Counted from the first letter of the stretch, positions 2 through 62,840 are shown. The stretch: 64,000 bases of DNA from an uncultured Bacilli bacterium (GCA_910578855.1 CAJTRV010000004.1:5551-69550), one strand, 5' to 3'. Notes: generated from the sequence alone by a model not told the origin. A program made the numbers and translations.

Positions 2-796
2 TAAACGATCCCGATATTTAATATGAATTTGTTCTCCAAATTTTTCTTTTAATCCATGAATACATAACTGTTTTAAATAGGTATAACTATCTATGCCATC
101 TGGACATTTATAAATCGGTAATAAATTTCCACCAGTTTCAATGGTTACATTACATAACTGATTGATCTTAAGGTTATTATCCCAATCCTCAGGAAACTGA
201 TCCTTAACTTCATCTGGCAAGCGAAATGGTTTGGGAACATCTTTAATCTTATGATCAGTGATTGTTTTTCCATCACGAATATCAGTTAAAATGGTCAGAT
301 ATTTACTATCATCAGCTTCAAAATAACGAATCTCATCCATATAAACACAATGTTCTCCGCGGTAAGAACGGCGTTCTTCTAGTGAAGTATATCCGTGGAA
401 AACATATTGATATATTTTATTAACCTGATCAATCAGTTCCATACTAGCAAATGGTAAGATAGCCAGTAACCCTTTACTATGTGTTTCTAAATCACATAAA
501 GTAAGAGCCCGTTCACTCATAAGGGTCGCCAATTTCATTAAATTATGATACCCATCACTATCCATACAATATAAAATAATATGTTTTTGATTAAAAGTAA
601 TATCTAACCCAATGATTGGTTTGATATCATGTTTCCGACAAGCTTCATAAAATTCCATGACACCAAACATATTATTATCGGTAATTGTGAGGGTGTCTAA
701 TTGATTAGCCTCGGCAAATTTAATCAATTGAGGAATCTTGATTAAACTATAAAGTAAAGAATATTCTGTTTTTAAATTTAGTGGTACGTATTTCAT
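2..796 (-). CDS. dnaE: DNA polymerase III alpha subunit (DnaE type), N-terminal PHP-domain part; the ORF runs off the left edge
   Basis: Absent from the ORF track because it is open-ended. My translation from ATG at 796 (SD aggagg = plus cctcct 802-807) reads MKYVPLNLKTEYSLLYSLIKIPQLIKFAEANQLDTLTITDNNMFGVMEFYEACRKHDIKPIIGLD... with no stop down to position 2. The layout matches a DnaE N-terminus. Confidence 0.75.
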   Translation of the reverse strand, partial: MKYVPLNLKTEYSLLYSLIKIPQLIKFAEANQLDTLTITDNNMFGVMEFYEACRKHDIKPIIGLDITFNQKHIILYCMDSDGYHNLMKLATLMSERALTLCDLETHSKGLLAILPFASMELIDQVNKIYQYVFHGYTSLEERRSYRGEHCVYMDEIRYFEADDSKYLTILTDIRDGKTITDHKIKDVPKPFRLPDEVKDQFPEDWDNNLKINQLCNVTIETGGNLLPIYKCPDGIDSYTYLKQLCIHGLKEKFGEQIHIKYRDRL

Positions 797-53853: not shown

Positions 53854-54230
53854 AATTTTTCTCCTAACATTATTTCCATAATTTCTTGAATTCGATTAAA
53901 GTGACCATTTAGATAATGATACCCAATTAATGCTTCTAAACCAGTTGATTCTTTATAAGTTACAATGTCAGTATGCTTAGGATGACGAGATCCTTTATGA
54001 TTCCTGGCACGTTTCACAATCTGAATCTCTTCGGTTGTTAATGATTCCTGATCTAGTAACATTTTTAAATAACGACTTTGGGCTTTGGCACTAACATATT
54101 GAACAGCTTCTTTCTGAAGATCATTCACTTTACAAAGACCTTTTTTTAATAACAGAGTCCGAATAACAACTTCATAAATACTATCACCAACATAAGCCAA
54201 CGCCAAAACATTTAGGCAATCTGTTTTCAT
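53823..54230 (-). CDS. mrnC: Mini-ribonuclease 3
   Basis: 135 aa with motif LALAYVGDSIYE, which resembles the RNase III signature. It lies upstream of rlmB. Confidence 0.8.
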   Translation of the reverse strand: MKTDCLNVLALAYVGDSIYEVVIRTLLLKKGLCKVNDLQKEAVQYVSAKAQSRYLKMLLDQESLTTEEIQIVKRARNHKGSRHPKHTDIVTYKESTGLEALIGYHYLNGHFNRIQEIMEIMLGEKLCISMEKMSH

Positions 54231-55108
54231 ACAAGTTCCTCAATTCGATCAAAGGTAATTCCTTTTATTAGACCACTTTTCATATCGTTTAAAATGAGAT
54301 TCATCACGCGGTCATAATCAATTTCCCCACCCTGAATCATACATCCTCGACGTTTACCAATGATATCCAACGTGTTAACCATATCTTCTTCATCAATAGT
54401 CGTAATTCCATAACGTGATTCTAACTCCTGAGGATAATAAGTATATAGCATGTTCAAAATGTAACAGACCACATCATAAATAGGCAATACTTCCTCTTTA
54501 ATTGCCGTTAAACTTGCGAGATTAAGGGCAATAGTTTGATCATCAAACTTCGGCCATAGTACCCCTGGTGAGTCTAACAATTCAAGACGCTGATTGATGC
54601 GAATCCAATCCAATGACTTCGTCACTCCAGGACGGTTTCCAACATTGGCAACCTTTTTTCCAACTAAGCGATTGATCAATGTGCTCTTTCCAACATTGGG
54701 AATCCCGACAACAAGGACCCGAATACGTCTTGATTTCATTCCTCTAGCAATCATATCATCCATCTTATCTTGCATCATCGCTTCAGTCTTTTTCACTATT
54801 CCGGTTGTACTTTGTTGATGCTCTAAATCAACCCCCATTACTTGATAACCTAGTTGTTCATAATACCGAATCCAGCGCTCTGTTTCTTTTTTATCACATA
54901 GATCCATCTTGGTCATAATTAACAACTTCGGCTTATTTCCAATAATCGATTCAATATCTTGAATCTTTGATGAGTATGGCATCCGAGCATCGATTACTTC
55001 ATAAACAACATCAATAACACTCATTTTTTCCTTCATAATTCGCTTGGCTTTCGCCATGTGACCGGGATACCAGTTGATTGTCGTATTTTGTCCTTTATTG
55101 TCGTTCAT
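54227..55108 (-). CDS. rbgA: Ribosome biogenesis GTPase A (YlqF/RbgA), circularly permuted GTPase
   Basis: The start is at MNDNKGQNTTINWYPGHMAKAKR (ATG 55108, SD aaggaag). The G4-like MTKMDL precedes the G1 motif GIPNVGKSTLIN. The longer track ORF to 55156 lacks an SD. Confidence 0.88.
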   Translation of the reverse strand: MNDNKGQNTTINWYPGHMAKAKRIMKEKMSVIDVVYEVIDARMPYSSKIQDIESIIGNKPKLLIMTKMDLCDKKETERWIRYYEQLGYQVMGVDLEHQQSTTGIVKKTEAMMQDKMDDMIARGMKSRRIRVLVVGIPNVGKSTLINRLVGKKVANVGNRPGVTKSLDWIRINQRLELLDSPGVLWPKFDDQTIALNLASLTAIKEEVLPIYDVVCYILNMLYTYYPQELESRYGITTIDEEDMVNTLDIIGKRRGCMIQGGEIDYDRVMNLILNDMKSGLIKGITFDRIEELV

Positions 55109-55123
55109 TTGTTTCACTTCCTT
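55070..55123 (-). repeat. Junction A: native rbgA SD plus first 13 codons, the chromosomal member of the repeat family that bounds the cassettes
   Basis: The minus strand reads aaggaagtgaaacaaATGAACGACAATAAAGGACAAAATACGACAATCAACTGG and then continues into rbgA (TATCCCGGTCAC). It aligns with copies B and C up to AACTGG (plus ccagtt at 55070-55075). Confidence 0.7.
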
Positions 55124-55559
55124 TAGATTTATTTTTATATTTAACATATTCTTCAATTTTTTTATTATAGTTCTTTAAATCTTCTACAAATTGAGGCTTA
55201 AATTGATTTAAATAATCAATGATTAAATCAGCATATTCATCAATATTTTCATCATCAACTATATCTATGAGATATTTATTGATTCCTTTTTTAGTATTTA
55301 TTCTTTCTACATAAAAGGCTAACAAATTAGTTGGACCTATTTTTTCTTTTGCTGATAAAACAATAGAAATCAAATTTTCTCTTGATGCATAATATCTCGG
55401 TTTAAATCCATTTGACCTAGAAAATAATATCAAAGTACAACCAATAAATAATTTATCTGAACCATTTTTAGGAAATGTTTTGTTTGCAAATTCAATTAAA
55501 CTTTCTGTATTACCCTGTTCGTAATCATCATATAGTTCCATTAAAATTCTATTTATCAT
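55095..55559 (-). CDS. Hypothetical protein (cassette 1 cargo)
   Basis: 154 aa with SD gaggag upstream of ATG 55559. The last 13 codons read through the rbgA SD and start codon. No motif is recognised. Confidence 0.5.
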   Translation of the reverse strand: MINRILMELYDDYEQGNTESLIEFANKTFPKNGSDKLFIGCTLILFSRSNGFKPRYYASRENLISIVLSAKEKIGPTNLLAFYVERINTKKGINKYLIDIVDDENIDEYADLIIDYLNQFKPQFVEDLKNYNKKIEEYVKYKNKSKGSETNERQ

Positions 55560-55569
55560 TTTATCTCCT

Positions 55570-55845
55570 CTATTTATATAGACTTTTTATAACTCTATTA
55601 ATGCAATCTTTGGCACTTCTGTTATTATTTGAAAAACTAATTTTTACTAATGTCCCATTTACTTTAAAAGCATATGGATTCTTTGTGGAAGCAATAAAAT
55701 CCAATATTCTTTCATTACTAGGTTTTCTTCTATCTATTTTTATATTTGTTATTTCATCCACATCTTCTAATTTTACATCATCAAGATTTACATTTCTACA
55801 TCTTTCTAATTTTTCTGCTAATTCTTTAATATTATATTTATTCAT
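55570..55845 (-). CDS. Small DUF6870-like protein (cassette 1)
   Basis: The start is at MNKYNIKELAEK (ATG 55845, SD ggagtg). The pattern ...DVDEITNIKIDRRKPSNERILDFIASTKNPYAFKVNGTLVKISFS resembles small proteins I recall from Firmicute mobile elements. That assignment is from memory. Confidence 0.5.
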   Translation of the reverse strand: MNKYNIKELAEKLERCRNVNLDDVKLEDVDEITNIKIDRRKPSNERILDFIASTKNPYAFKVNGTLVKISFSNNNRSAKDCINRVIKSLYK

Positions 55846-55927
55846 AAAATCACACTCCATATTAATTATAAAATCAAATACAATTAATGTTAAATGTGCA
55901 ATTTTTTATTATAAATGATAATCTTTA

Positions 55928-56953
55928 CTAATCTTTATTATTTTCTGAAGTTTCTAATAATTTTGTACTTTCAATAAATTTATCGAAGTCAGAAATATAT
56001 AATTGGTCTTGTTTTTCCTTAAACTTATCATACTCTTTATATGCAAGTTCTTGAGCCACTTTATGAGATATTTTTCCTGCATCATGCAGTATTTCTTGCC
56101 CATTAAATTGTAAAAACGCATCCAATTTTTCTACCCAATCTTTCATTGTCATCGCATTATGATTTTCTGCTTGTAATTCAGCATAATCTAAATACATAGT
56201 AACTATTCTATTTAAGTTTTTTAATTCTTTTTCTGTCAAATAATTTTTAGCAATATCAACATCATATTTATAAATCGTTCCATCAGGAGAACCTGTCCAA
56301 TTTGTTAAACCCATATTGTCTTTTTCTGAATCAACTCTATTATAAATAATCTCTGCAGCAGTATTACCAGTGACTGAATAATGAAGTTTATTCTGCACAG
56401 TTTTAAAAAAAGTTTTAGTGATTTCTGAATCTTTATCATAATCAACACTACAAGATGAATATATATCTGTTATCTTTTGGTAAAATCTTCTTTCACTAGA
56501 ACGAATATTTCTAATTCTTTCTAGTGTTCTTTCAAAATAATCTTCTCCAAAAATATAATTTGGATTTTTTAATCTCTCGTCATCCATAACAACGCCAGTA
56601 ATTAAGTATTCTTTTAGAACTTTTGTTGCCCATATTCTAAATTGCGTTGCTTTTTTGGAATTAACTCTATAACCTACAGCAATAATCATATCTAAATTGT
56701 ATATTTTAGATTTTCTTCCACCTGTACTTTCGTCGGAAATTCCGACAGAAGTTTCTTCCTTAAGTTCACCACTATTTAATATATTATTAATATGTTCTGT
56801 TATGGTACTTCTACCTACTCCAAATAATTCAGCAATCAAATTTTGCGTCAACCAAATATCATTATTAATTAATAATACATTCACTTTGATATCATTATTA
56901 TCATCACGATATATTAAAAAGTCGTGGGTAGTTATTTGTAAATTATTTTTCAT
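55928..56953 (-). CDS. RhuM-family protein (N-terminal HTH, conserved RhuM core)
   Basis: 341 aa with motifs WLTQNLIAELFGVGRSTITEHINNI, YNLDMIIAVGYRVNSKKATQFRIWATKVLKEYL, SERRFYQKITDIY and MYLDYAELQA. Confidence 0.75.
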   Translation of the reverse strand: MKNNLQITTHDFLIYRDDNNDIKVNVLLINNDIWLTQNLIAELFGVGRSTITEHINNILNSGELKEETSVGISDESTGGRKSKIYNLDMIIAVGYRVNSKKATQFRIWATKVLKEYLITGVVMDDERLKNPNYIFGEDYFERTLERIRNIRSSERRFYQKITDIYSSCSVDYDKDSEITKTFFKTVQNKLHYSVTGNTAAEIIYNRVDSEKDNMGLTNWTGSPDGTIYKYDVDIAKNYLTEKELKNLNRIVTMYLDYAELQAENHNAMTMKDWVEKLDAFLQFNGQEILHDAGKISHKVAQELAYKEYDKFKEKQDQLYISDFDKFIESTKLLETSENNKD

Positions 56954-57209
56954 TTATTTTCACCGCTTTCTTATGTTCTTAAATGTCGTAATCACCTATC
57001 TAATTTCTATTATAAATAGCGCAAAAATTACTATATTTTTATGAATTTTTATTGTTTTTTATCATTTTTTAATGAAAACATGCAAGATATAAATTGGATA
57101 GTTTCCTTTATTTATAAGGGTTTAAGGGTGTTCTTAATTAAATCGTAATCAACCAGTTTATGTTTGCCTGATTTTGTCGATTTTCATTATTCATTTATTT
57201 CACTTCCTT
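56954..57209 (-). repeat. Cassette-boundary repeat B, containing a decoy rbgA 5' end
   Basis: Positions 57107-57209 match 59039-59141 at 99 of 103 nt; the rest is roughly 80% identical by eye. It contains SD, ATG (57194) and MNNENRQNQANINWLITI* (57138-57194), the core ccagtt at 57153-57158, and two cgtaatc motifs at 56987 and 57144. Confidence 0.8.
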
Positions 57210-57704
57210 CAATTCAATATTATTTTCTAATAAAACGCTTTCTAATGTTTCATTTTCGTTTATAATATATAAGTTCTCATAATTTCTTTGCAAACAATCC
57301 TCATAGAATGGAACAAATACATTTCCCAAGCCACTAATAAAACTTTCATTATTACCTCGATTTATACACTTTCTCTTTACATCTTCCCAATTATTAATAT
57401 TAGGATATGCTATACTGTATTTAATATTATTTTTATCGAAATAATCGAAGTGTTCTGGTTTTAATTGAACTAAAACAACATCATATTCCTTTATAGCCAT
57501 TCGAATGGCTTTATAGTAATTCTTTGGCCATTCACTATTTACTTCTCTTTTCGTTCCTTTTCTTGCTTCAACAGGTACATTTTCAAGATTAGTATTAATA
57601 TATTTAAAATTACTCGATTCTAAATCAATTACATTCCTATATTTTTTACCCAAAATGCTTTTTCCACACGTTGCAAATCCTGCAATTATTATTCCCTTAG
57701 CCAT
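57195..57704 (-). CDS. P-loop NTPase/kinase-like protein (cassette 2 cargo)
   Basis: 169 aa with Walker A IIIAGFATCGKS. The C-terminal KEVK and stop are encoded by the repeated rbgA SD segment, and the TAA abuts the decoy ATG (TAAATG). Confidence 0.55.
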   Translation of the reverse strand: MAKGIIIAGFATCGKSILGKKYRNVIDLESSNFKYINTNLENVPVEARKGTKREVNSEWPKNYYKAIRMAIKEYDVVLVQLKPEHFDYFDKNNIKYSIAYPNINNWEDVKRKCINRGNNESFISGLGNVFVPFYEDCLQRNYENLYIINENETLESVLLENNIELKEVK

Positions 57705-57993
57705 TATTTACCTCTTGTCTATATAAATTTTCTAAAATTTTAGTTAAACAATCATCTGCAGTTAAATTACTATTTTCTGAAAATCTTATTCTAACTAATT
57801 TCCCATTGACTTTAAATATATATGGGTTCTTTTTCTTCATTACAAACGCTAATATTCTTTCATTACTAGGTTTTCTTCTATCTATTTTTATATCTGTTAT
57901 TTCATCCACATCTTCTAATTTTACATCGTCAAGATTTACATTTCTACATCTCTCTAATTTTTCTGCTAATTCTTTAATATTATGTTTATTCAT
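57697..57993 (-). CDS. Small DUF6870-like protein (cassette 2)
   Basis: The start is at MNKHNIKELAEK (ATG 57993). The first 143 nt match the cassette 1 paralog at 139 of 143 positions, and the C-terminal half is diverged. It overlaps the next gene by 8 nt. Confidence 0.5.
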   Translation of the reverse strand: MNKHNIKELAEKLERCRNVNLDDVKLEDVDEITDIKIDRRKPSNERILAFVMKKKNPYIFKVNGKLVRIRFSENSNLTADDCLTKILENLYRQEVNNG

Positions 57994-58056
57994 ATTATAC
58001 CTTCTTTCTATAATAATTTTATTATTTAGAAAGAAATAACACAAATGTGCAAAATA

Positions 58057-58899
58057 CTAGATATTATCTTTTTCTCCTAATAGTTTTATCTTTTCTGCAT
58101 TATTAAGTATATCAAGTTGATACTTAGCAATGCTACTTAATATTTCAAATCTTTCTTCTTTGCTTTTTCCTTCTTTAATTAGTTCTGCATTATGTGATTC
58201 TAAATTAGATAATACTGTTAATTCATTTATCGATGCATAATCTCTAACATTTGAGTTTTTTGCTAAATTCGGATTAAGTTCTCTCCATCTTTTAGCAGTT
58301 GTGTTAAATAAGGCAACATTTAAAATATCTGCTTCTTCTGCATACTTTAACCATTCTCTATCTTTATAATAATCATTATCAGGTAATATATAATTTTTAA
58401 TTGCATCTGTATGAATAAGATAATTATTTTTGGTTAAGATTCTTTTTATATCCCATTCCCTATTTTGATTTTCTAACTCTTTTAGTCTTTCAAATTCTTT
58501 TATCAAATATAGTTTAAAAACCGGACTAATAGAAGATGCAAATTCAAAAGCAATGTCTTTATGAGCATAAGTTCCACCATATTTTCCACGCTTCGAATAT
58601 ATCCCAATTGCATTTGTTTTACTACACCATTCTGTAACACTTAGTGTAAAAGTATGAAGTCCTGCCTCACTTTTAAACCCGTCGAATTCGACGGAATTAA
58701 AATTTGGATTGTAAATTGACTCCCAAGTACCTAAAAATTCTAAAGTAATTCTATTTCTTAACCAATTTCTGATAACATCATCTGATGTAGATTTTCCTTC
58801 TTTAAACTTGGTAAAATCAGAAATACAAATATAATCGCTATCATTTATATTTGTTATGTTCACTTTAATATTTTGAACTTCAATTATTTTGTTTGGCAT
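58057..58899 (-). CDS. KilA-N domain protein
   Basis: 280 aa. ICISDFTKFKEG...IRNWLRNRITLEFLGTWE...GGTYAHKDIAFEFASSISP has the KilA-N layout. Confidence 0.7.
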   Translation of the reverse strand: MPNKIIEVQNIKVNITNINDSDYICISDFTKFKEGKSTSDDVIRNWLRNRITLEFLGTWESIYNPNFNSVEFDGFKSEAGLHTFTLSVTEWCSKTNAIGIYSKRGKYGGTYAHKDIAFEFASSISPVFKLYLIKEFERLKELENQNREWDIKRILTKNNYLIHTDAIKNYILPDNDYYKDREWLKYAEEADILNVALFNTTAKRWRELNPNLAKNSNVRDYASINELTVLSNLESHNAELIKEGKSKEERFEILSSIAKYQLDILNNAEKIKLLGEKDNI

Positions 58900-59141
58900 A
58901 TATTCGCCTCTTTTCCATGTCCTTAAAATTCGTAATCACCTATCTAATTCTTATAATAAATAATACCAAAATTATTAGTTTTTATATTTTTAATTATTTT
59001 TTAATGAAAATATGCAAGATCTAATCTAGATAATTTTCTTTATTTATAAGGGTTTAATGGTATTCTTAATTAAATCGTAATCAGCCAGTTTATGTTTGCC
59101 TGATTTTGTCGATTTTCATTATTCATTTGTTTCACTTCCTT
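58900..59141 (-). repeat. Cassette-boundary repeat C, containing a decoy rbgA 5' end
   Basis: It is homologous to repeat B throughout. It contains SD, ATG (59126) and MNNENRQNQANINWLITI* (59070-59126), the core ccagtt at 59085-59090, and cgtaatc motifs at 58931 and 59076. Confidence 0.8.
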
Positions 59142-59147
59142 TATTAT

Positions 59148-59321
59148 TTAACATTGAGAATTTAAAAAATTTGCAATTTGTTCTAAATTTTTAAATATTT
59201 TTCCATCATTTCTTATAACTATTCCTCTTGCACCATATCTCATTCTAGGCTCATTCATTTCAATCATACTTTCGCCTAAATCTTCATCAGTTATTTTACA
59301 TATTAATTTCATTAATATCAT
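59148..59321 (-). pseudogene. Possible 5' fragment of a NUDIX-type hydrolase gene (57 codons)
   Basis: My translation is MILMKLICKITDEDLGESMIEMNEPRMRYGARGIVIRNDGKIFKNLEQIANFLNSQC*. The RxGARGIVIxxDGKI stretch resembles the strand preceding a Nudix box, but the box itself is absent. Confidence 0.25.
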
Positions 59322-59338
59322 CTCGCTTTCATTTTATA

Positions 59339-59863
59339 TTACAACTTGTATTCTTTTATCTCACAATTCTTCAATCCACGATTTAAAAACCAACCATCAT
59401 TAATGCCATCAAAATATGCACTAAAAGCTTTTGAAACACCACTATGTGCAACAATTAAAACACTTTTATAATTTTGAGTTTTAAGTTCATCTAAAAAATT
59501 ATATATTCTATCAAAAAAGTCTTTTATATTTTCAGAGGTTCCATATTGAATTGTTGTATTATAATTCCAATATTCATCACGATTAGTTATTTCAAGAGGT
59601 TTACCACTTAAATCTCCACAACTTCTTTCTTGAATTCTATCATCAATAATAATTTCATTATTATTAGCATTAATAATATTAGCTGTGTGTTTTGCCCTAA
59701 TTAAAGGTGAAGAAATTATAATATCAAAGTTTATATCTTTAATTTTGTCTCTTAATTCTTCTGCTTGACTTATTCCAAGTTCAGTTAAATCTTCATCTTT
59801 TGTATTATATTGTTTCAATGCATTATGAGGTACTTCACCATGTCTTACTATATATATTTTCAT
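59339..59863 (-). CDS. Histidine phosphatase family protein (phosphoglycerate-mutase-like)
   Basis: 174 aa with the RHG motif IYIVRHGEVPHN, plus SSPLIRAKHTA and VAHSG. Confidence 0.75.
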   Translation of the reverse strand: MKIYIVRHGEVPHNALKQYNTKDEDLTELGISQAEELRDKIKDINFDIIISSPLIRAKHTANIINANNNEIIIDDRIQERSCGDLSGKPLEITNRDEYWNYNTTIQYGTSENIKDFFDRIYNFLDELKTQNYKSVLIVAHSGVSKAFSAYFDGINDGWFLNRGLKNCEIKEYKL

Positions 59864-59989
59864 TTATTGACTCCTTTTTTATAGAATTTTTATAGTAACA
59901 TTTTATCATCGAGGATATATATTTATTTTATTATTGATACCATTATATTAAAATCATACTCATTTTTACTATTTTTATCTGTTTCTAAG

Positions 59990-61254
59990 GTTATATGATT
60001 ATTCTCTGTTTTTCCTTTAAAATAAAGCAAATCAGCTATTTTAAATTGTCGTGTCATTTCGCGTACACAAGCCAGGAAGTCAGGCCCATATGTTCTTTAT
60101 TTGAATCAACTCTATTATATATAATTTCTGCTGTTTGTTTTGATACAGCAAAATGCATTTTGTTTTGTACTTTTTTAAAAAATTCAATTGATATTGGAGA
60201 TTTAAAATCATAGTCAATACTTGTAGCATATATATCTGTTATTTTTTGATAAAATCGCCTTTCTGATAACCTTATTTCTCTAATTTCTTCTAATAATTTT
60301 TCAAAATAATCTTCTCCAAAAATATAATTTGGATTTTTTTATCTTTCGTCATCCATAACAGCATCATTAATTAGATATTCTTTTAAAACCTTTGTTGCCC
60401 ATATTTTAAATTCTGTTGCTTTTTTAGAATTGATCCTGTATCCAACTACAATAATTACATCTAAATTATATATTTTGGTTTTATATTTTTTACCATCAGA
60501 GGCAGTTATCGAGGATTCCTCGATAACTGAATCCTGATTTAATGCATTATCTTTAGAAATTGCAGATTTTTTTATTTCCTTTTCATATAAATCTCTAGCA
60601 CCTTTAGCAACTCCTCCGCCTCTTTTTGCTACATTTAAATTTTCTTTTAAACCTTGCGGATGTTCTTCTCTTGCAATATCTCGTGTTGCAATCTCTCCTA
60701 TATTTGTTCACTAGCTTTCATTCCAGACCACCCCTTATAGATTTCATTGGTTTGGTTATGCCTCCTTCTTTCCAAACATCTGTAAGTTTAAATCTATCTA
60801 CAACCCCCATTAGTCTTGCCTTAATCCATTCATCAGAGTACCCTTTATTACGATAATAATTTACTGCTCTATTTATTGCAATTTCAGGATCAAATACTTC
60901 ATCAATCCTCTCACTACCAAGACTCGCTAACCAAACTTTAAATGGTTCGGCCTTAGGGCTAGAAACTGATTCAATTAATCTTAATATTCCATTTGTATCT
61001 AAAGTATCAGTTATACGATTTTTACCATCCCGGGCCTCCATTTTCAACTGCACGATTTCTTCGTGCAGTTCACTTCCTTCATAAATTAATCTTCTTTTTA
61101 AACCGCTCCAATAATTTCTTGGGATTTTTGCTTCAGTTAATACACTTATTACATCAGCAACGCTAAAATAATACTCTTCTTTTTCACTATCCCAAATGCT
61201 TCTTATTTCTTTACCTTCAAATAAATTTGATATTGTTTCTAATTTGTTGTTCAA
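59990..61254 (-). pseudogene. Bro-N / RhuM-core chimeric gene, inactivated
   Basis: The N-terminal Bro-N-like ORF (TTG 61254 to 60718) reads FEGKEIRSIWDSEKEEYYFSVADVISVL. A frameshift near 60715 follows. The RhuM core then continues in another frame (YNLDVIIVVGYRINSKKATEFKIWATKVLKEYL). An in-frame TAA at 60339-60341 sits where the intact paralog has TTA (DER-L-KNPN). The 3' end is truncated near 60054. Confidence 0.7.
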
Positions 61255-61396
61255 ATATAACACCTCTTTTCTATGGTCTTAAATGCCGTAATCATCTTTC
61301 TAATTCTTAAATAAAAATATGGAAAATTTAAAATCGTACAACCTCCTTATTTATAGGGATTTACTTAAGAGTGCAATAAATCGTAATCAAACAGTT
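61255..61396 (-). repeat. Cassette-boundary repeat D, the outermost, degenerate copy with no rbgA decoy
   Basis: It shares with B and C the blocks cttaaatgccgtaatca, tttataggg/tttataaggg and aaatcgtaatcaaacagtt. Homology stops at acagtt (61391-61396). Beyond that a different short frame, MRQEKRIAKVIKKVFHQSELTV*, reads into the core. Confidence 0.6.
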
Positions 61397-61503
61397 AATT
61401 CTGACTGATGAAAAACTTTTTTGATTACTTTCGCTATTCTTTTTTCTTGTCTCATTTTTCCCTTTTGATATATATCCATATTTTTCACTTTCTTTTCAAT
61501 AGT

Positions 61504-62064
61504 TTAAAGTTTTTTACCCATTACAATGGGTCTATCATCATAAATATGAATTCTGTTATTTATATCACTAATTAATGCAACAAGTTTTCTAGGATTTTCT
61601 ACTCCTTCAAAACTCATTCCATTTTTTATTTGTTCAATTAAATTATTAGCATAAAAATTAAAAGATATATCTCCATAATTATTTTTTTCTCTTGCAATTC
61701 CAATATGTTCTATATCAGATATATTTTCTATCCTAAATCCATTTTTAGAATTATATAGAGCTATCCTTTTATTGGTAATAAAATATTCATTATTTTTCTT
61801 TTTATATTTTAAGAATATATTATAAACTAATCCATAAATTAAACAAATTGTTAATATGCCCAAAGTAAGAAAAATTATCAAAATTTCAAAATTTAGTATT
61901 TCCCCACTTTTTATACCTATTATAATTAATATCCAAAATAATAACAATACGGCAAAACCTAATAAAAATCTACCATATTGTTTACTAGTCTTACTAACGT
62001 TTGAAACACCATAGAATAATATTTTTTCATTCTCTTCCAATTTATTTATAAACTCATTTTTCAT
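61504..62064 (-). CDS. Membrane protein with bacterial PH-like (YdbT/bPH_2-type) domain
   Basis: 186 aa. EKILFYG is followed by two TM segments and then YFITNKRIALYN, as in bPH_2 proteins. Confidence 0.45.
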   Translation of the reverse strand: MKNEFINKLEENEKILFYGVSNVSKTSKQYGRFLLGFAVLLLFWILIIIGIKSGEILNFEILIIFLTLGILTICLIYGLVYNIFLKYKKKNNEYFITNKRIALYNSKNGFRIENISDIEHIGIAREKNNYGDISFNFYANNLIEQIKNGMSFEGVENPRKLVALISDINNRIHIYDDRPIVMGKKL

Positions 62065-62201
62065 TTATCTCTCTCCTTACAATTTATTAAATATAATACC
62101 ATTTAATAAAAGAGAATTCCTTTATTAAAATCATTCTAGTTTTATCCACTATAGATTCCTCATAAGATAACCATTTATTCATTTCGAAAATGCATTTATT
62201 T

Positions 62202-62840
62202 TTATTTAAAGATTACATATGGAATGCCCATTTTATGATAAACATCATAAGCTCGTGGCCACGAGAACATTCGGGCAATTAATAAATTATAAAGTTCATC
62301 AAACATGATGATAGAACACAATGTAATTGAAAGCATTAAAAATAATTTTTTATTCATCCGTTTCGCAAGAAAAAAACACATAGGAATTATGACATACATC
62401 AACAATAAACTAGATAACCCAAAGAACATAACACTTCTTAAACAAACAAAACCATGAATGTTTCCAAAGTTTAAAATTTCCGAATTATAATCCCAACAAC
62501 GCATTCCATTTCCAATGATATACATGCCCAAACCTGATATATATTCGAGAATCCCAGTTGCAAAAAAACTAATTAAAAATACCCAGAATGGTTTTTTTCG
62601 ATGCTTGTAAGTTAATAGATAAATCATAATTGAACCTGTCGCATATATATTAATCCATGGTAAGAAATTACCACCTCGCCAATAAAATTGTTTCATACCA
62701 CCATTAAAATAATAAAATATAAATTCATAGATCCAACCAAAAATTCCGGTGATAACGATTAACAGACAACAAATTCCTAGCATCGTCCATTTATCAAACG
62801 AATGATTATTTTCTATATAATGTTTATACCATTTCTTCAT
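62202..62840 (-). CDS. Polytopic membrane protein (possibly the putative ABC-transporter type IV / DUF1113 family)
   Basis: 212 aa with about 6 TM segments and an N-terminal GIFGWIYEFIFYYF. The family call is from memory. Confidence 0.4.
   Translation of the reverse strand: MKKWYKHYIENNHSFDKWTMLGICCLLIVITGIFGWIYEFIFYYFNGGMKQFYWRGGNFLPWINIYATGSIMIYLLTYKHRKKPFWVFLISFFATGILEYISGLGMYIIGNGMRCWDYNSEILNFGNIHGFVCLRSVMFFGLSSLLLMYVIIPMCFFLAKRMNKKLFLMLSITLCSIIMFDELYNLLIARMFSWPRAYDVYHKMGIPYVIFK

Follow-up and report, generated by a model that had tools for sequence, protein, structure and literature searches.

Paired, co-varying half-site-like motifs in the 5′ module of small mobile gene cassettes arrayed within the start of rbgA

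The cassette boundaries in the 64,000-nucleotide stretch analysed here (the whole of which is referred to hereafter as the window) are copies of a conserved ~200-bp 5′ module belonging to small mobile gene cassettes. These insert in succession into the 5′ end of rbgA, which encodes an essential GTPase; the insertion point is a TG dinucleotide in the codons for Asn-Trp (AAC TGG), close to where the gene begins. Judged from the sequence, the motif copy next to this core (TTGATTACGATTTAATTAAGAAC) reads as half-site P′, on the right of a ~50-bp dyad with the TG at its centre, in keeping with the attP architecture of large serine recombinases (LSRs), and the gene-proximal copy reads as a third half-site-like element in the same orientation, usually 157 bp (~15 helical turns) downstream. 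On balance, and with measured confidence, we favour as the best explanation of the whole an LSR-type P′ half-site in rbgA-inserting cassettes, accompanied by a distal copy that would be bound by the same LSR.

A preliminary description of this DNA had reported the paired motif at every cassette boundary. All of the TGATTACG positions it gave on the minus strand proved right (57144, 59076 and 61382 for the core copies; 56987, 58931 and 61287 for the gene-proximal ones), as did its statement that the core copies directly border the AACTGG core (AACTGG/AACTGT in the sequence) and its inter-copy distances of 157, 145 and 95 nt for cassettes B, C and D. The whole window contains nine TGATTACG (1.9 expected), six of which lie within the three boundaries; the composite TGATTACGN{0,2}WTTTAW, equivalent to TGATTACG(N0-2)WTTTAW, occurs six times (0.07 expected), exclusively at these boundaries, and 0/100 shuffles reached that number. 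The block AATTAGAWAGRTGATTACG is kept in all three units, as had been claimed. Two details required amendment: the literal “ATTTAA” of the described motif is a mere consensus, because the gene-proximal copy of C is TGATTACGAATTTTAA and the core copy of D ends in ..ATTTAT, and the third, degenerate copy placed near 61335 in D aligns, in the family consensus, with an unrelated stretch, TTTTCGAATTTAGATC, and is not a conserved feature. Background frequency does not account for the pattern; across related loci totalling 691 kb, TGATTACG is found on the cassette strand 113 times at cores and a further 76 times at +114..165, against 12 times on the opposite strand (~11 expected). The paired motif is also kept at the same boundary in L139, another strain of the same species. 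Enrichment of the motif at cassette boundaries is real, and the original observation is confirmed.

The core pattern was matched at 118 loci, ~103 of which are from AT-rich gut Bacilli; counted as species-level genomes, ~100 uncultured gut Bacilli have this boundary. A second TGATTACG is located 114–165 nt downstream in 76/113 junctions (exactly 157 nt in 44; ~0.2 by chance), and a true rbgA junction lies 0.8–4 kb downstream of a core in 34 loci. Near-identical contigs from different samples split exactly after ..ATCAACTG, one continuing into rbgA and the other into a new cassette, and left of AACTGG the cassettes differ between strains of the species to which the window belongs. Natural insertion polymorphisms break directly after ..AACTG (L131 vs L130) or within AACTGGT (L126 vs L129), positions compatible with strand exchange at the TG. 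Throughout, rbgA remains intact because every cassette supplies, at its end, a replacement ribosome-binding site and replacement first codons; in the window, the ribosome-binding site and first 12 codons of rbgA come from cassette B, and the junction at which ..ATCAACTG meets GTATCCCGGTCACATGG agrees with 34 rbgA junctions in related loci. The rbgA-proximal junction is attR-like, combining a cassette P-side half with the B′ half of rbgA. Cassette B has a G+C content of 24–28% (flanks 35–38%), and the leader of the decayed cassette D has lost ~62 nt. Beyond D lies an older remnant, E, whose membrane protein is 93.5% identical to the product of an array gene in L125, whereas for rbgA the identity to any locus does not exceed 63%; the class-3 end of E matches the ends of LSR cassettes in L019 and L117.

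Table 1. Features of the rbgA-proximal cassette array, in window coordinates.
Feature	Position	Strand	Description
rbgA (ylqF), ribosome-biogenesis GTPase, target gene	54227..55108	-	Pfam MMR_HSR1/RsgA_GTPase
Crossover dinucleotide TG, rbgA-proximal junction	55071..55072	-	same-species and near-identical contigs split exactly there
Cassette B	55073..57153	-	leader, RhuM, DUF6870, 154-aa ORF, replacement SD and rbgA 5′ codons
Cassette B, RhuM	55928-56953	-	
Cassette B, DUF6870	55570-55860	-	
B copy 1, P′ half-site	57130..57153	-	GTTGATTACGATTTAATTAAGAAC; immediately after crossover TG 57154-57155
B copy 2	56975..56994	-	TGATTACGACATTTAAGAAC; 157 nt from copy 1; SD 18 nt downstream
B leader interior	57080..57120	-	quasi-palindrome CCCTTATAAATAAAGG 57105-57120; GATCTTGCAT-type box, TTGCAT 57080-57085
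Cassette C	57156..59085	-	leader, KilA-N, DUF6870, 169-aa ORF, rbgA 5′ mimic ATGAATAATGAAAATCGACAAAATCAGGCAAACATAAACTG
Cassette C, KilA-N	58057-58899	-	
Cassette C, DUF6870	57697-58044	-	
Cassette C, 169-aa ORF	57195-57704	-	
C copy 1, P′ half-site	59062..59085	-	GCTGATTACGATTTAATTAAGAAT; after TG 59086-59087
C copy 2	58919..58938	-	TGATTACGAATTTTAAGGAC; 145 nt from copy 1, ~one helical turn under 157
Cassette D, decayed	59088..61391	-	shortened leader, Bro-N, RhuM pseudogene fragments, His_Phos_1, 57-aa ORF, rbgA 5′ mimic
Cassette D, Bro-N	60718-61263	-	
Cassette D, RhuM pseudogene fragments	~60000-60700	-	
Cassette D, His_Phos_1	59339-59863	-	
D copy 1, P′ half-site	61368..61391	-	TTTGATTACGATTTATTGCACTCT; TTGCA-type outer block; after TG 61392-61393
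D copy 2	61275..61294	-	TGATTACGGCATTTAAGACC; 95 nt from copy 1
Older cassette remnant E	61394..62064	-	186-aa membrane-protein gene 61504-62064; class-3 rbgA 5′ mimic, end ..AAAAAAGTTTTTCATCAGTCAGAATTAACTG

The core-proximal half-site is bipartite: TGATTACG forms its inner block, and an example of its outer block is TTAAGAAC; the latter is common to both copies in B, lying 2 bp closer in copy 2. Mirror scores are highest when the centre is placed on the TG of AACTGG, and copy 1 of B mirrors the P-side halves of related loci, for example GTTCTTAATAAAAGTGTAATCAAC in L010 (21/24) and also that in L129. As dyads, L010 scores 21/24 and L019 19/24, with outer blocks that match on both arms, and L129 is near-perfect (GTTCTTAATAAAAGCGTAATCAAC-TG-GTTGATTCCGATTTAATTAAGAAC). 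The junctions of the window itself make poor dyads (9–13/24), as the left half of each is a mimic of the rbgA 5′ end. At its best (L010, L019, L129), the site has the form of an attP-type element—~40–50 bp of imperfect inverted half-sites about a central dinucleotide. The earlier suggestion of recombinase core or arm sites is upheld in substance by the dyad on the TG and by the co-variation of the copies described below, but the comparison points to an LSR and away from a tyrosine integrase with lambda-type arms.

The gene-proximal copy is placed between promoter-like boxes and the Shine-Dalgarno sequence, and in B is preceded by AATTAGATAGG (56995-57005). We observe that the inner blocks of the two copies change jointly (copy 1/copy 2: TGATACCG/TGATACCG, TGATACCA/TGATACCA, TGATAACG/TGATAACG, GGAAAGC/GGAAAGC, GGTAATGGAAG/GGTAATGGAAG), and that the leader interior is still homologous across the lineages in which they have changed. 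The outer 9-mers are also alike, with an identity of 7.14/9 between copies vs 5.55 ± 0.15 under permuted pairings, and the outer-block offset is 11 in copy 2 and 13 in copy 1 in 53/55 cases. Several motif families are present together in one array; the motifs are therefore cassette-specific, not host-specific. Copy types are mismatched in some leaders (e.g. L019, L014, L029), and copy 2 is dispensable for integration, since short-leader cassettes, one LSR-carrying cassette among them, lack it. Inside the leader, the quasi-palindrome and GATCTTGCAT-type box are conserved at fixed positions across 83 leaders. A structured cis-regulatory RNA (riboswitch or leader RNA) was rejected, an Rfam search of the leader giving 0 matches at E<=1 and RNAalifold finding no consensus structure in the 83 leaders.

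LSRs with Resolvase, Recombinase and Zn_ribbon_recom domains are present inside cassettes in 7 loci, and an LSR gene is situated 0–3 genes upstream of rbgA in 7/7 homologue lineages looked up (45–71% identity). These proteins are ~405 aa long and are encoded by a minority of cassettes. Some family loci carry a candidate cognate LSR within the element, whereas a search for one within the window found none, such that the window's cassettes would rely on an LSR acting in trans. The link between LSR and motif is correlative and the mapping imperfect; the LSR of L130b is 41–45% identical to all others yet sits in a TGATACCG cassette, and those of L126 and L132 are 80% identical while their inner blocks differ.

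Co-variation of the copies bears on whether copy 2 might be a relic devoid of function, left by a fossilised junction or by a duplication that arrived with a promoter module of 157 bp, beside a recombinase half-site at copy 1, its similarity persisting via linkage, recent spread or gene conversion. The likeness between copies does span ~30 nt, the short-leader cassettes demonstrate integration without copy 2, and L007 resembles what a deletion between the repeats would make of L114. We nevertheless consider a relic improbable: copy 2 and its preceding block are among the best-conserved leader positions (80–99%) where neighbouring stretches are variable, several lineages with homologous leader interiors show parallel changes in inner and outer blocks, and the 2-bp spacer difference retained in 53/55 cases is one that conversion would erase. 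Both copies might instead be operators for a cassette-backbone protein other than the recombinase, with DUF6870 the best candidate, or for a host factor, but the occurrence of several motif families within one host speaks against the host factor. DUF6870, which is small and highly conserved, is the commonest second gene of cassettes (34 occurrences in the loci, behind RhuM, Bro-N, YhcG or KilA-N alike); it is present in B and C, is recurrent in rbgA arrays and adjoins LSR genes in L137. It is, however, missing from many cassettes that have the paired motif (D and the LSR cassettes of L019, L117 and L119 are among them), and it is at least 64% identical over 120 homologues whereas the motifs diversify; the copy 1 dyad around the crossover, moreover, fits a recombinase site, and we doubt that either kind of operator is the answer. 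A structural model of DUF6870 has a pLDDT of 63, too poor for judging DNA binding.

Two further readings fare worse. Streptococcal ICEs with tyrosine integrases insert at the rbgA 5′ end with coding frame and N-terminus preserved (PMC4701971), a precedent for seeing the motifs as core- and arm-type sites of such an integrase and the cassettes as integrase-less (CIME-like) derivatives mobilised by an rbgA ICE-type element. The 7-bp AACTGGT common to cassette and target would suit an overlap region, and the ~200-bp leader is similar in length to a lambda-type attP arm. We regard this as very improbable, given that a tyrosine-recombinase (HxLRH-type) signature was found in 0/579 ORFs of at least 150 aa from ~100 loci, that no recurrent Phage_integrase match was found, and that LSRs are the sole recombinases recurring inside cassettes; identity past the TG is, in addition, not needed, because one polymorphic pair splits directly after AACTG. 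Arm sites of a lambda-type attP normally differ in sequence from its core sites, whereas here the distal copy repeats and co-varies with the core motif; a lambda-type attP with arm sites was rejected, the integrase being absent in the searched loci and both copies being the same motif. Operators for the DNA-binding protein encoded by the first gene (RhuM, KilA-N or Bro-N), which the preliminary description had entertained for RhuM and KilA-N, would agree with the position of copy 2 just upstream of the first-gene SD and with the ~60% of long-leader cassettes that begin with Bro-N, RhuM, KilA-N or YhcG. The identical motif, however, precedes these four and at least 25 unrelated first genes, and its variants follow the attachment site rather than cargo or first gene, making such a role unlikely, to the extent that we give it almost no credence.

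Among known systems, the closest analogue is the tandem SCC cassettes. SCC/SCCmec and ccr-less SCC-like cassettes (rlmH/orfX, staphylococci) are likewise integrated site-specifically by LSRs at a conserved housekeeping gene, and likewise form tandem arrays; many of the elements are recombinase-less and mobilised in trans, as would be the case here. Their cargo, like that of the present cassettes, shows an enrichment of genes for anti-phage defence (PMC11470126). An SCC-like element proper was rejected because the SCC target is the 3′ end of rlmH, whereas here it is the 5′ end of rbgA, with replacement of N-terminal codons and ribosome-binding site; the present cassettes are also far smaller (0.8–4 kb), have single ~405-aa LSRs rather than CcrA/CcrB pairs, and each possess a conserved leader that is promoter-like and contains a co-varying second half-site. 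Integron cassettes are similar in forming strain-variable arrays of small, co-oriented one- or few-gene units without their own recombinase, entering at one array end and bearing diverse cargo (here GNAT, HAD and methyltransferase genes and defence candidates). Integrons, however, use IntI and foldable attC sites with R″/R′ boxes (GTTRRRY), and their cassettes are promoterless; here we found no tyrosine IntI and no attC hairpin sites, the junction misfits GTTRRRY, each cassette brings its own leader with conserved promoter-like boxes, and the array is anchored at an essential gene, the start of which is rebuilt with every insertion, and an integron attC/cassette was accordingly rejected. Streptococcal ICEs/IMEs share target gene and gene end with the present cassettes, but are large, conjugative elements with tyrosine integrases and 12–54 bp direct repeats.

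For copy 2, res sites provide a working analogy. In the Tn3/gamma-delta and Sin/beta systems, the serine recombinase binds the crossover and extra sites ~50–100 bp away, and these accessory sites overlap promoters, giving autoregulation and topological control. The enzymes concerned are small serine recombinases, whereas the candidate binder here is an LSR, and each of their accessory sites is a full dimer site lying within ~120 bp, in contrast to a single half-site-like copy ~157 bp away; we know of no canonical LSR that uses a site beyond its ~50-bp att site.

Returning to the LSR reading, the motif arrangement suggests that, most likely, both copies are bound by the cassette LSR, with the distal copy serving to regulate the leader promoter or to aid recombination. 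The ~405-aa LSR of the family would bind core-proximal and gene-proximal copies alike and, being encoded in a minority of cassettes, would act in trans on the others, including the three of the window. Alternatively, or additionally, the distal copy may be an accessory recombination site. We propose that the leader promoter would be controlled by LSR sitting on the distal copy, which may be looped to the P′ site, and that expression of recombinase and cargo would in this way be held in check; a coupling of recombination state to expression in these cassettes is plausible.

All genes between 54 and 64 kb lie on the minus strand, and upstream of rbgA three co-oriented units (cassettes B, C and D, with B adjoining rbgA) are set apart by a G+C content of 24–28%, the flanks having 35–38%. 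On this strand every unit opens with ..AACTG/G(T/C)TGATTACGATTTA.. (slash, junction), followed by a leader, a gene-proximal motif (copy 2), a Shine–Dalgarno sequence (SD) and the genes; every unit closes with GGAAGTGAAAYAAATGAA...ATAAACTG, a mimic of the rbgA ribosome-binding site and first codons (the real rbgA junction reads GGAAGTGAAACAAATGAACGACAATAAAGGACAAAATACGACAATCAACTG/GTATCCCGGTCACATGG). This shared start and end layout therefore identifies the units as tandem site-specific insertions in the Asn-Trp codons of rbgA, the start of which is rebuilt by each inserted cassette. The rbgA ATG follows GGAAGTG and is conserved in relatives, although ORF calling extends the gene to an upstream TTG; the last ORF of B overlaps the rebuilt start codon by 14 nt (55095–55108).

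Features of the rbgA array, listed from the distal end toward rbgA (minus strand, window positions; genes of each unit in order)
Feature	Unit	Position	Remark
186-aa membrane-protein gene	upstream of D	61504–62064	
Copy 1 (beside AACTGG)	D	61382	
Copy 2 (near SD)	D	61287	
Bro-N gene	D	60718–61263	PDC-S13/S04
RhuM pseudogene	D	~60000–60700	frameshifted
His_Phos gene	D		
57-aa ORF	D		
Copy 1	C	59076	
Quasi-palindrome	C	59037–59052	
Copy 2	C	58931	
KilA-N gene	C	58057–58899	PDC-S22
DUF6870 gene	C	57697–58044	
169-aa ORF	C		
Copy 1	B	57144	
Quasi-palindrome	B	57105–57120	
Copy 2	B	56987	
RhuM gene	B	55928–56953	PDC-S05
DUF6870 gene	B	55570–55860	
154-aa ORF	B	55095–55559	last ORF of B
rbgA/ylqF	target	54227–55108	ribosome-biogenesis GTPase; ATG 55108, extended call TTG 55156

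The preliminary description had placed two motif copies at each boundary, one beside the AACTGG core (copy 1) and one near the SD, and its positions are exact: TGATTACG occurs six times in the three boundary regions out of nine in the 64-kb window (1.9 expected), at separations of 157 (B), 145 (C) and 95 nt (D), as claimed. The composite TGATTACGN{0,2}WTTTAW is found six times in the window, every one at a boundary (0.07 expected), and the block AATTAGAWAGRTGATTACG, likewise proposed to be conserved, falls within a ~250-nt alignment of all three boundaries. The third, degenerate copy suggested for D (~61335) did not hold up; the part of the family consensus opposite it is unrelated to the motif, and with no conserved feature there in either the boundary alignment or the consensus we regard it as a chance resemblance. 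The RhuM pseudogene of D retains 74–87% DNA identity to the RhuM gene of B (repeat families D1, D9 and D12), and this pseudogene, together with the loss of ~62 nt from the leader, makes D look old and decaying.

Scanning species-representative genomes with AACTGNNTGATTACGATTTA, which selects on copy 1 only, returned at least 118 loci, and ~103 of the 118 matches listed are AT-rich contigs from uncultured gut Bacilli, 'Tenericutes' or Erysipelotrichaceae MAGs. Among the matches listed, a true rbgA junction lies 0.8–4 kb downstream of the core in 34 loci, and a second TGATTACG follows 76/113 cores at +114 to +165; the spacing between copies is exactly 157 nt in 44 of these cases and 154–159 nt in 68. 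The usual left flank is rimM-trmD-rplS-lepB. Across 691 kb of these loci the opposite-strand TGATTACG numbers 12, about the composition expectation, and the pairs stand far above this background. The leader consensus alternates sharply conserved blocks (the core, the CCTTATAAATAAAGG box, GATCTTGCAT and GGAATTAGAAAGGTGATTACGAC) with variable stretches. Within the window species (identical SpoU protein, mouse-gut metagenomes; L136–L143) the array is hypervariable: at least five arrangements occur to the left of AACTGG, the right side being the same, and the boundary is conserved in another strain (L139), which retains leader B with both copies. The RbgA N-terminal extension falls into four classes (..NRQNTTINW, ..NGVNKSVINW, ..NRQNSTNINW and ..KSFTSVGVNW). 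The membrane protein encoded upstream of D is 93.5% identical to that of an array gene in another genome (L125:1200–1757) whose rbgA is far less similar (no locus exceeds 63% rbgA identity), a disparity that indicates recent horizontal transfer of cassette cargo. Viral contigs gave four hits, one of them a real leader, and no evidence for phage carriage of cassettes.

Mirror symmetry across the junction is highest with the TG of AACTGG as its centre (8.4/16, vs 3–6 at shifted centres). In cassettes ending ..NVLNKSVINW the junction forms a ~50-bp dyad, at one locus (L010) GTTCTTAATAAAAGTGTAATCAAC-TG-GTTGATTACGATTTAATTAAGAAC, with 21/24 agreement. Another locus (L019) reaches 19/24, and its two arms share an outer block of their own, GGGTTGCA. 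The attP sites of large serine recombinases (LSRs) have this same size and layout, and copy 1 is, judged by its sequence, half of a crossover site. Natural before/after pairs locate the point of entry: L126 matches L129 without a difference for 3000 nt to ..ATCAACTGGT, beyond which L126 continues into rbgA and L129 into a new cassette, and L131 diverges from L130 directly past ..ATCAACTG. The junction next to rbgA is therefore where new cassettes enter. A ~410-aa protein with Resolvase, Recombinase and Zn_ribbon_recom domains, encoded within cassettes at seven loci, is an LSR; its homologues number in the thousands (more than 6000), and in 7/7 lineages looked up (45–71% identity) its gene is co-oriented with rbgA and 0–3 genes upstream. 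A tblastn search with an LSR query found none in the window, so the cassettes here would depend on an LSR supplied in trans. A further strain of this species has a different element at rbgA (L137:2280–6502), in which two larger LSRs of 569 and 528 aa lie side by side, recalling ccrA/ccrB pairs, with DUF6870 adjoining their genes; it also carries a 163-aa resolvase-domain protein and a PemK toxin, and ends in a palindromic-type half, GGGGTTAATAAAAGTGTAATCAAC-TG.

Several other binders could be proposed for the paired motifs. The suggestion that they are recombinase sites survives in substance: copy 1 fits an LSR half-site, but arm sites of a tyrosine integrase are rejected, since signature searches associated no such enzyme with the loci (0/579 ORFs of at least 150 aa; no recurring Phage_integrase family among 150 representative proteins). 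Streptococcal ICEs with tyrosine integrases do integrate at the rbgA 5′ end (PMC4701971). An operator role for the cassette-encoded RhuM, KilA-N or Bro-N proteins, also put forward earlier, is not supported: the motif is unchanged whether the first gene belongs to one of four such families or is any of at least 25 unrelated ones. A structured RNA was likewise discarded: an Rfam scan of 54900–62300 at E ≤ 1 was empty, and RNAalifold on 83 aligned leaders gave no consensus structure. DUF6870, as the commonest second gene of the cassettes, is a weaker candidate for the motif binder, being missing from many paired-motif cassettes. This ~91-aa protein (also at L148–L151) shares no less than 64% identity with each of 120 homologues; it holds its rank as second gene whatever the first gene, and an independent look-up again placed it in rbgA arrays. 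Its AlphaFold model is too poor for interpretation (pLDDT 63) and our searches found neither literature nor a PDB relative; it could be a backbone factor, for example a directionality factor or a regulator.

We observe that the two copies vary together. Half-sites are bipartite; the inner block is TGATTACG, and in 80 leaders the outer blocks match between copies (e.g. TTAAGAAC, TTGCAACCCC, TTTAAACCCC and TAGTAACT), with a mean identity of 7.14/9 against 5.55 ± 0.15 when permuted (maximum 6.04 in 2000 permutations). The outer block sits at an offset of 11 in copy 2 and 13 in copy 1, 2 bp closer, in 53/55 cases. In diverged cassette lineages, found via their LSRs such that the motif was not used for selection, the inner block shifts jointly in both copies: TGATACCG at a spacing of 155–157 nt, TGATACCA at 156, TGATAACG at 156–157, GGAAAGC at 127 and GGTAATGGAAG at 113, with the leader interior homologous throughout. 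Several motif families occur in one array, so the motifs are cassette-specific rather than host-specific. The parallel change and the retained 2-bp difference argue for selection by what would be one sequence-specific binder, as against descent or gene conversion. A 12-mer self-match on variant leaders (own 8.9, cross 7.5) was noisy in AT-rich windows and was replaced by the aligned-copy comparison and the permutation test. The LSR tree fits the motifs in part, with clade A carrying TGATTACG, a 58% lineage TGATACCG and a 50% lineage TGATAACG; the misfits are one distant LSR within a TGATACCG cassette and two LSRs 80% identical whose inner blocks differ. From these patterns we infer that the LSR probably binds at both copies, and that the distal copy has a function.

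As to what that function might be, copy 2 lies between conserved promoter-like boxes and the SD, and its distance to P′ (the right half of the crossover site) is tightly constrained. Some deviations fall near whole helical turns (C, −12 nt; D, −62 nt), others off them (151, 165 and 113/114 nt). Copy 2 is missing from short-leader cassettes, one of them LSR-bearing, and is therefore dispensable for integration. We favour a regulatory role for copy 2, in which the cassette promoter would be flanked by recombinase on P′ and on copy 2 and might be looped out between them; resolvase at res, which brackets or loops a promoter, provides the model. The alternative is an accessory element in recombination. 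Cassette genes are all oriented toward rbgA, and a promoter/terminator scan, uninformative in such AT-rich DNA, found no terminator-like site between them and rbgA; promoter-like sites were rarer than in shuffled sequence, and the leader boxes were not singled out. The predicted leader promoters are likely to drive the essential rbgA as well, which would explain why the promoter travels with the attachment site. Between the two copies, a 15-bp quasi-palindrome (CCTTATAAATAAAGG) is fixed at +40 from AACTG across 83 leaders, and in 11/66 its reverse complement (CCTTTATTTATAAGG) takes that position; predicted neither as a terminator nor as an RNA hairpin, it may be where a dimeric or DNA-bending protein binds. 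In one pair of loci sharing a first gene (L007:238 and L114:1762, oriented coordinates), a deletion fuses copy 1 to the sequence immediately past copy 2, removing the promoter module; the direct repeats can therefore recombine or slip to leave a promoterless cassette.

The closest working analogue of the rbgA arrays is SCC/SCCmec, in which Ccr LSRs mobilise tandem cassettes at rlmH, ccr-less and defence-rich ones included (PMC11470126). Integrons are alike in cassette size, orientation and strain-level turnover. The rbgA arrays differ in their target, an essential gene whose first codons every insertion rebuilds, in the short single LSR, and in a portable promoter-bearing leader with a co-evolving distal half-site. 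The literature searched contained no account of LSR cassettes at rbgA, and its incomplete coverage makes this weak evidence of novelty. Beyond the anatomy, conservation, co-variation and insertion polymorphisms observed here, we raise tentatively, as a reading we consider rather unlikely in its entirety, that the arrays are an undescribed integron-like platform in which ~405-aa LSRs would insert promoter-bearing mini-cassettes into the first codons of rbgA, and would use a third, co-evolving half-site, in phase with the crossover at ~15 helical turns, to loop out the promoter as a cis-encoded regulatory or directionality device. To our knowledge, no such third half-site has been reported for LSRs. 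The three first genes (RhuM, KilA-N and Bro-N) match candidate single-gene defence families in PADLOC (Table), relatives that have an LSR also encode AAA_15/OLD-TOPRIM, reverse-transcriptase and GmrSD proteins, and by gene content the arrays look like defence islands.

If confirmed, this would be a widespread cassette-capture system of uncultured gut Bacilli (human, mouse, rabbit, ruminant and chicken samples), working like an integron or SCC but with a short LSR and an anchor in an essential gene. Variation between strains of one species, together with candidate anti-phage genes, would make mining the arrays for defence and accessory genes practical, and the attP variants occurring in nature, each matched to an LSR lineage, could serve as orthogonal integration tools. 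The paired, co-varying half-sites suggest that the LSR may recognise a distal, promoter-side site, which bears on the control of integration, excision and expression in small LSR elements that have no obvious directionality factor.
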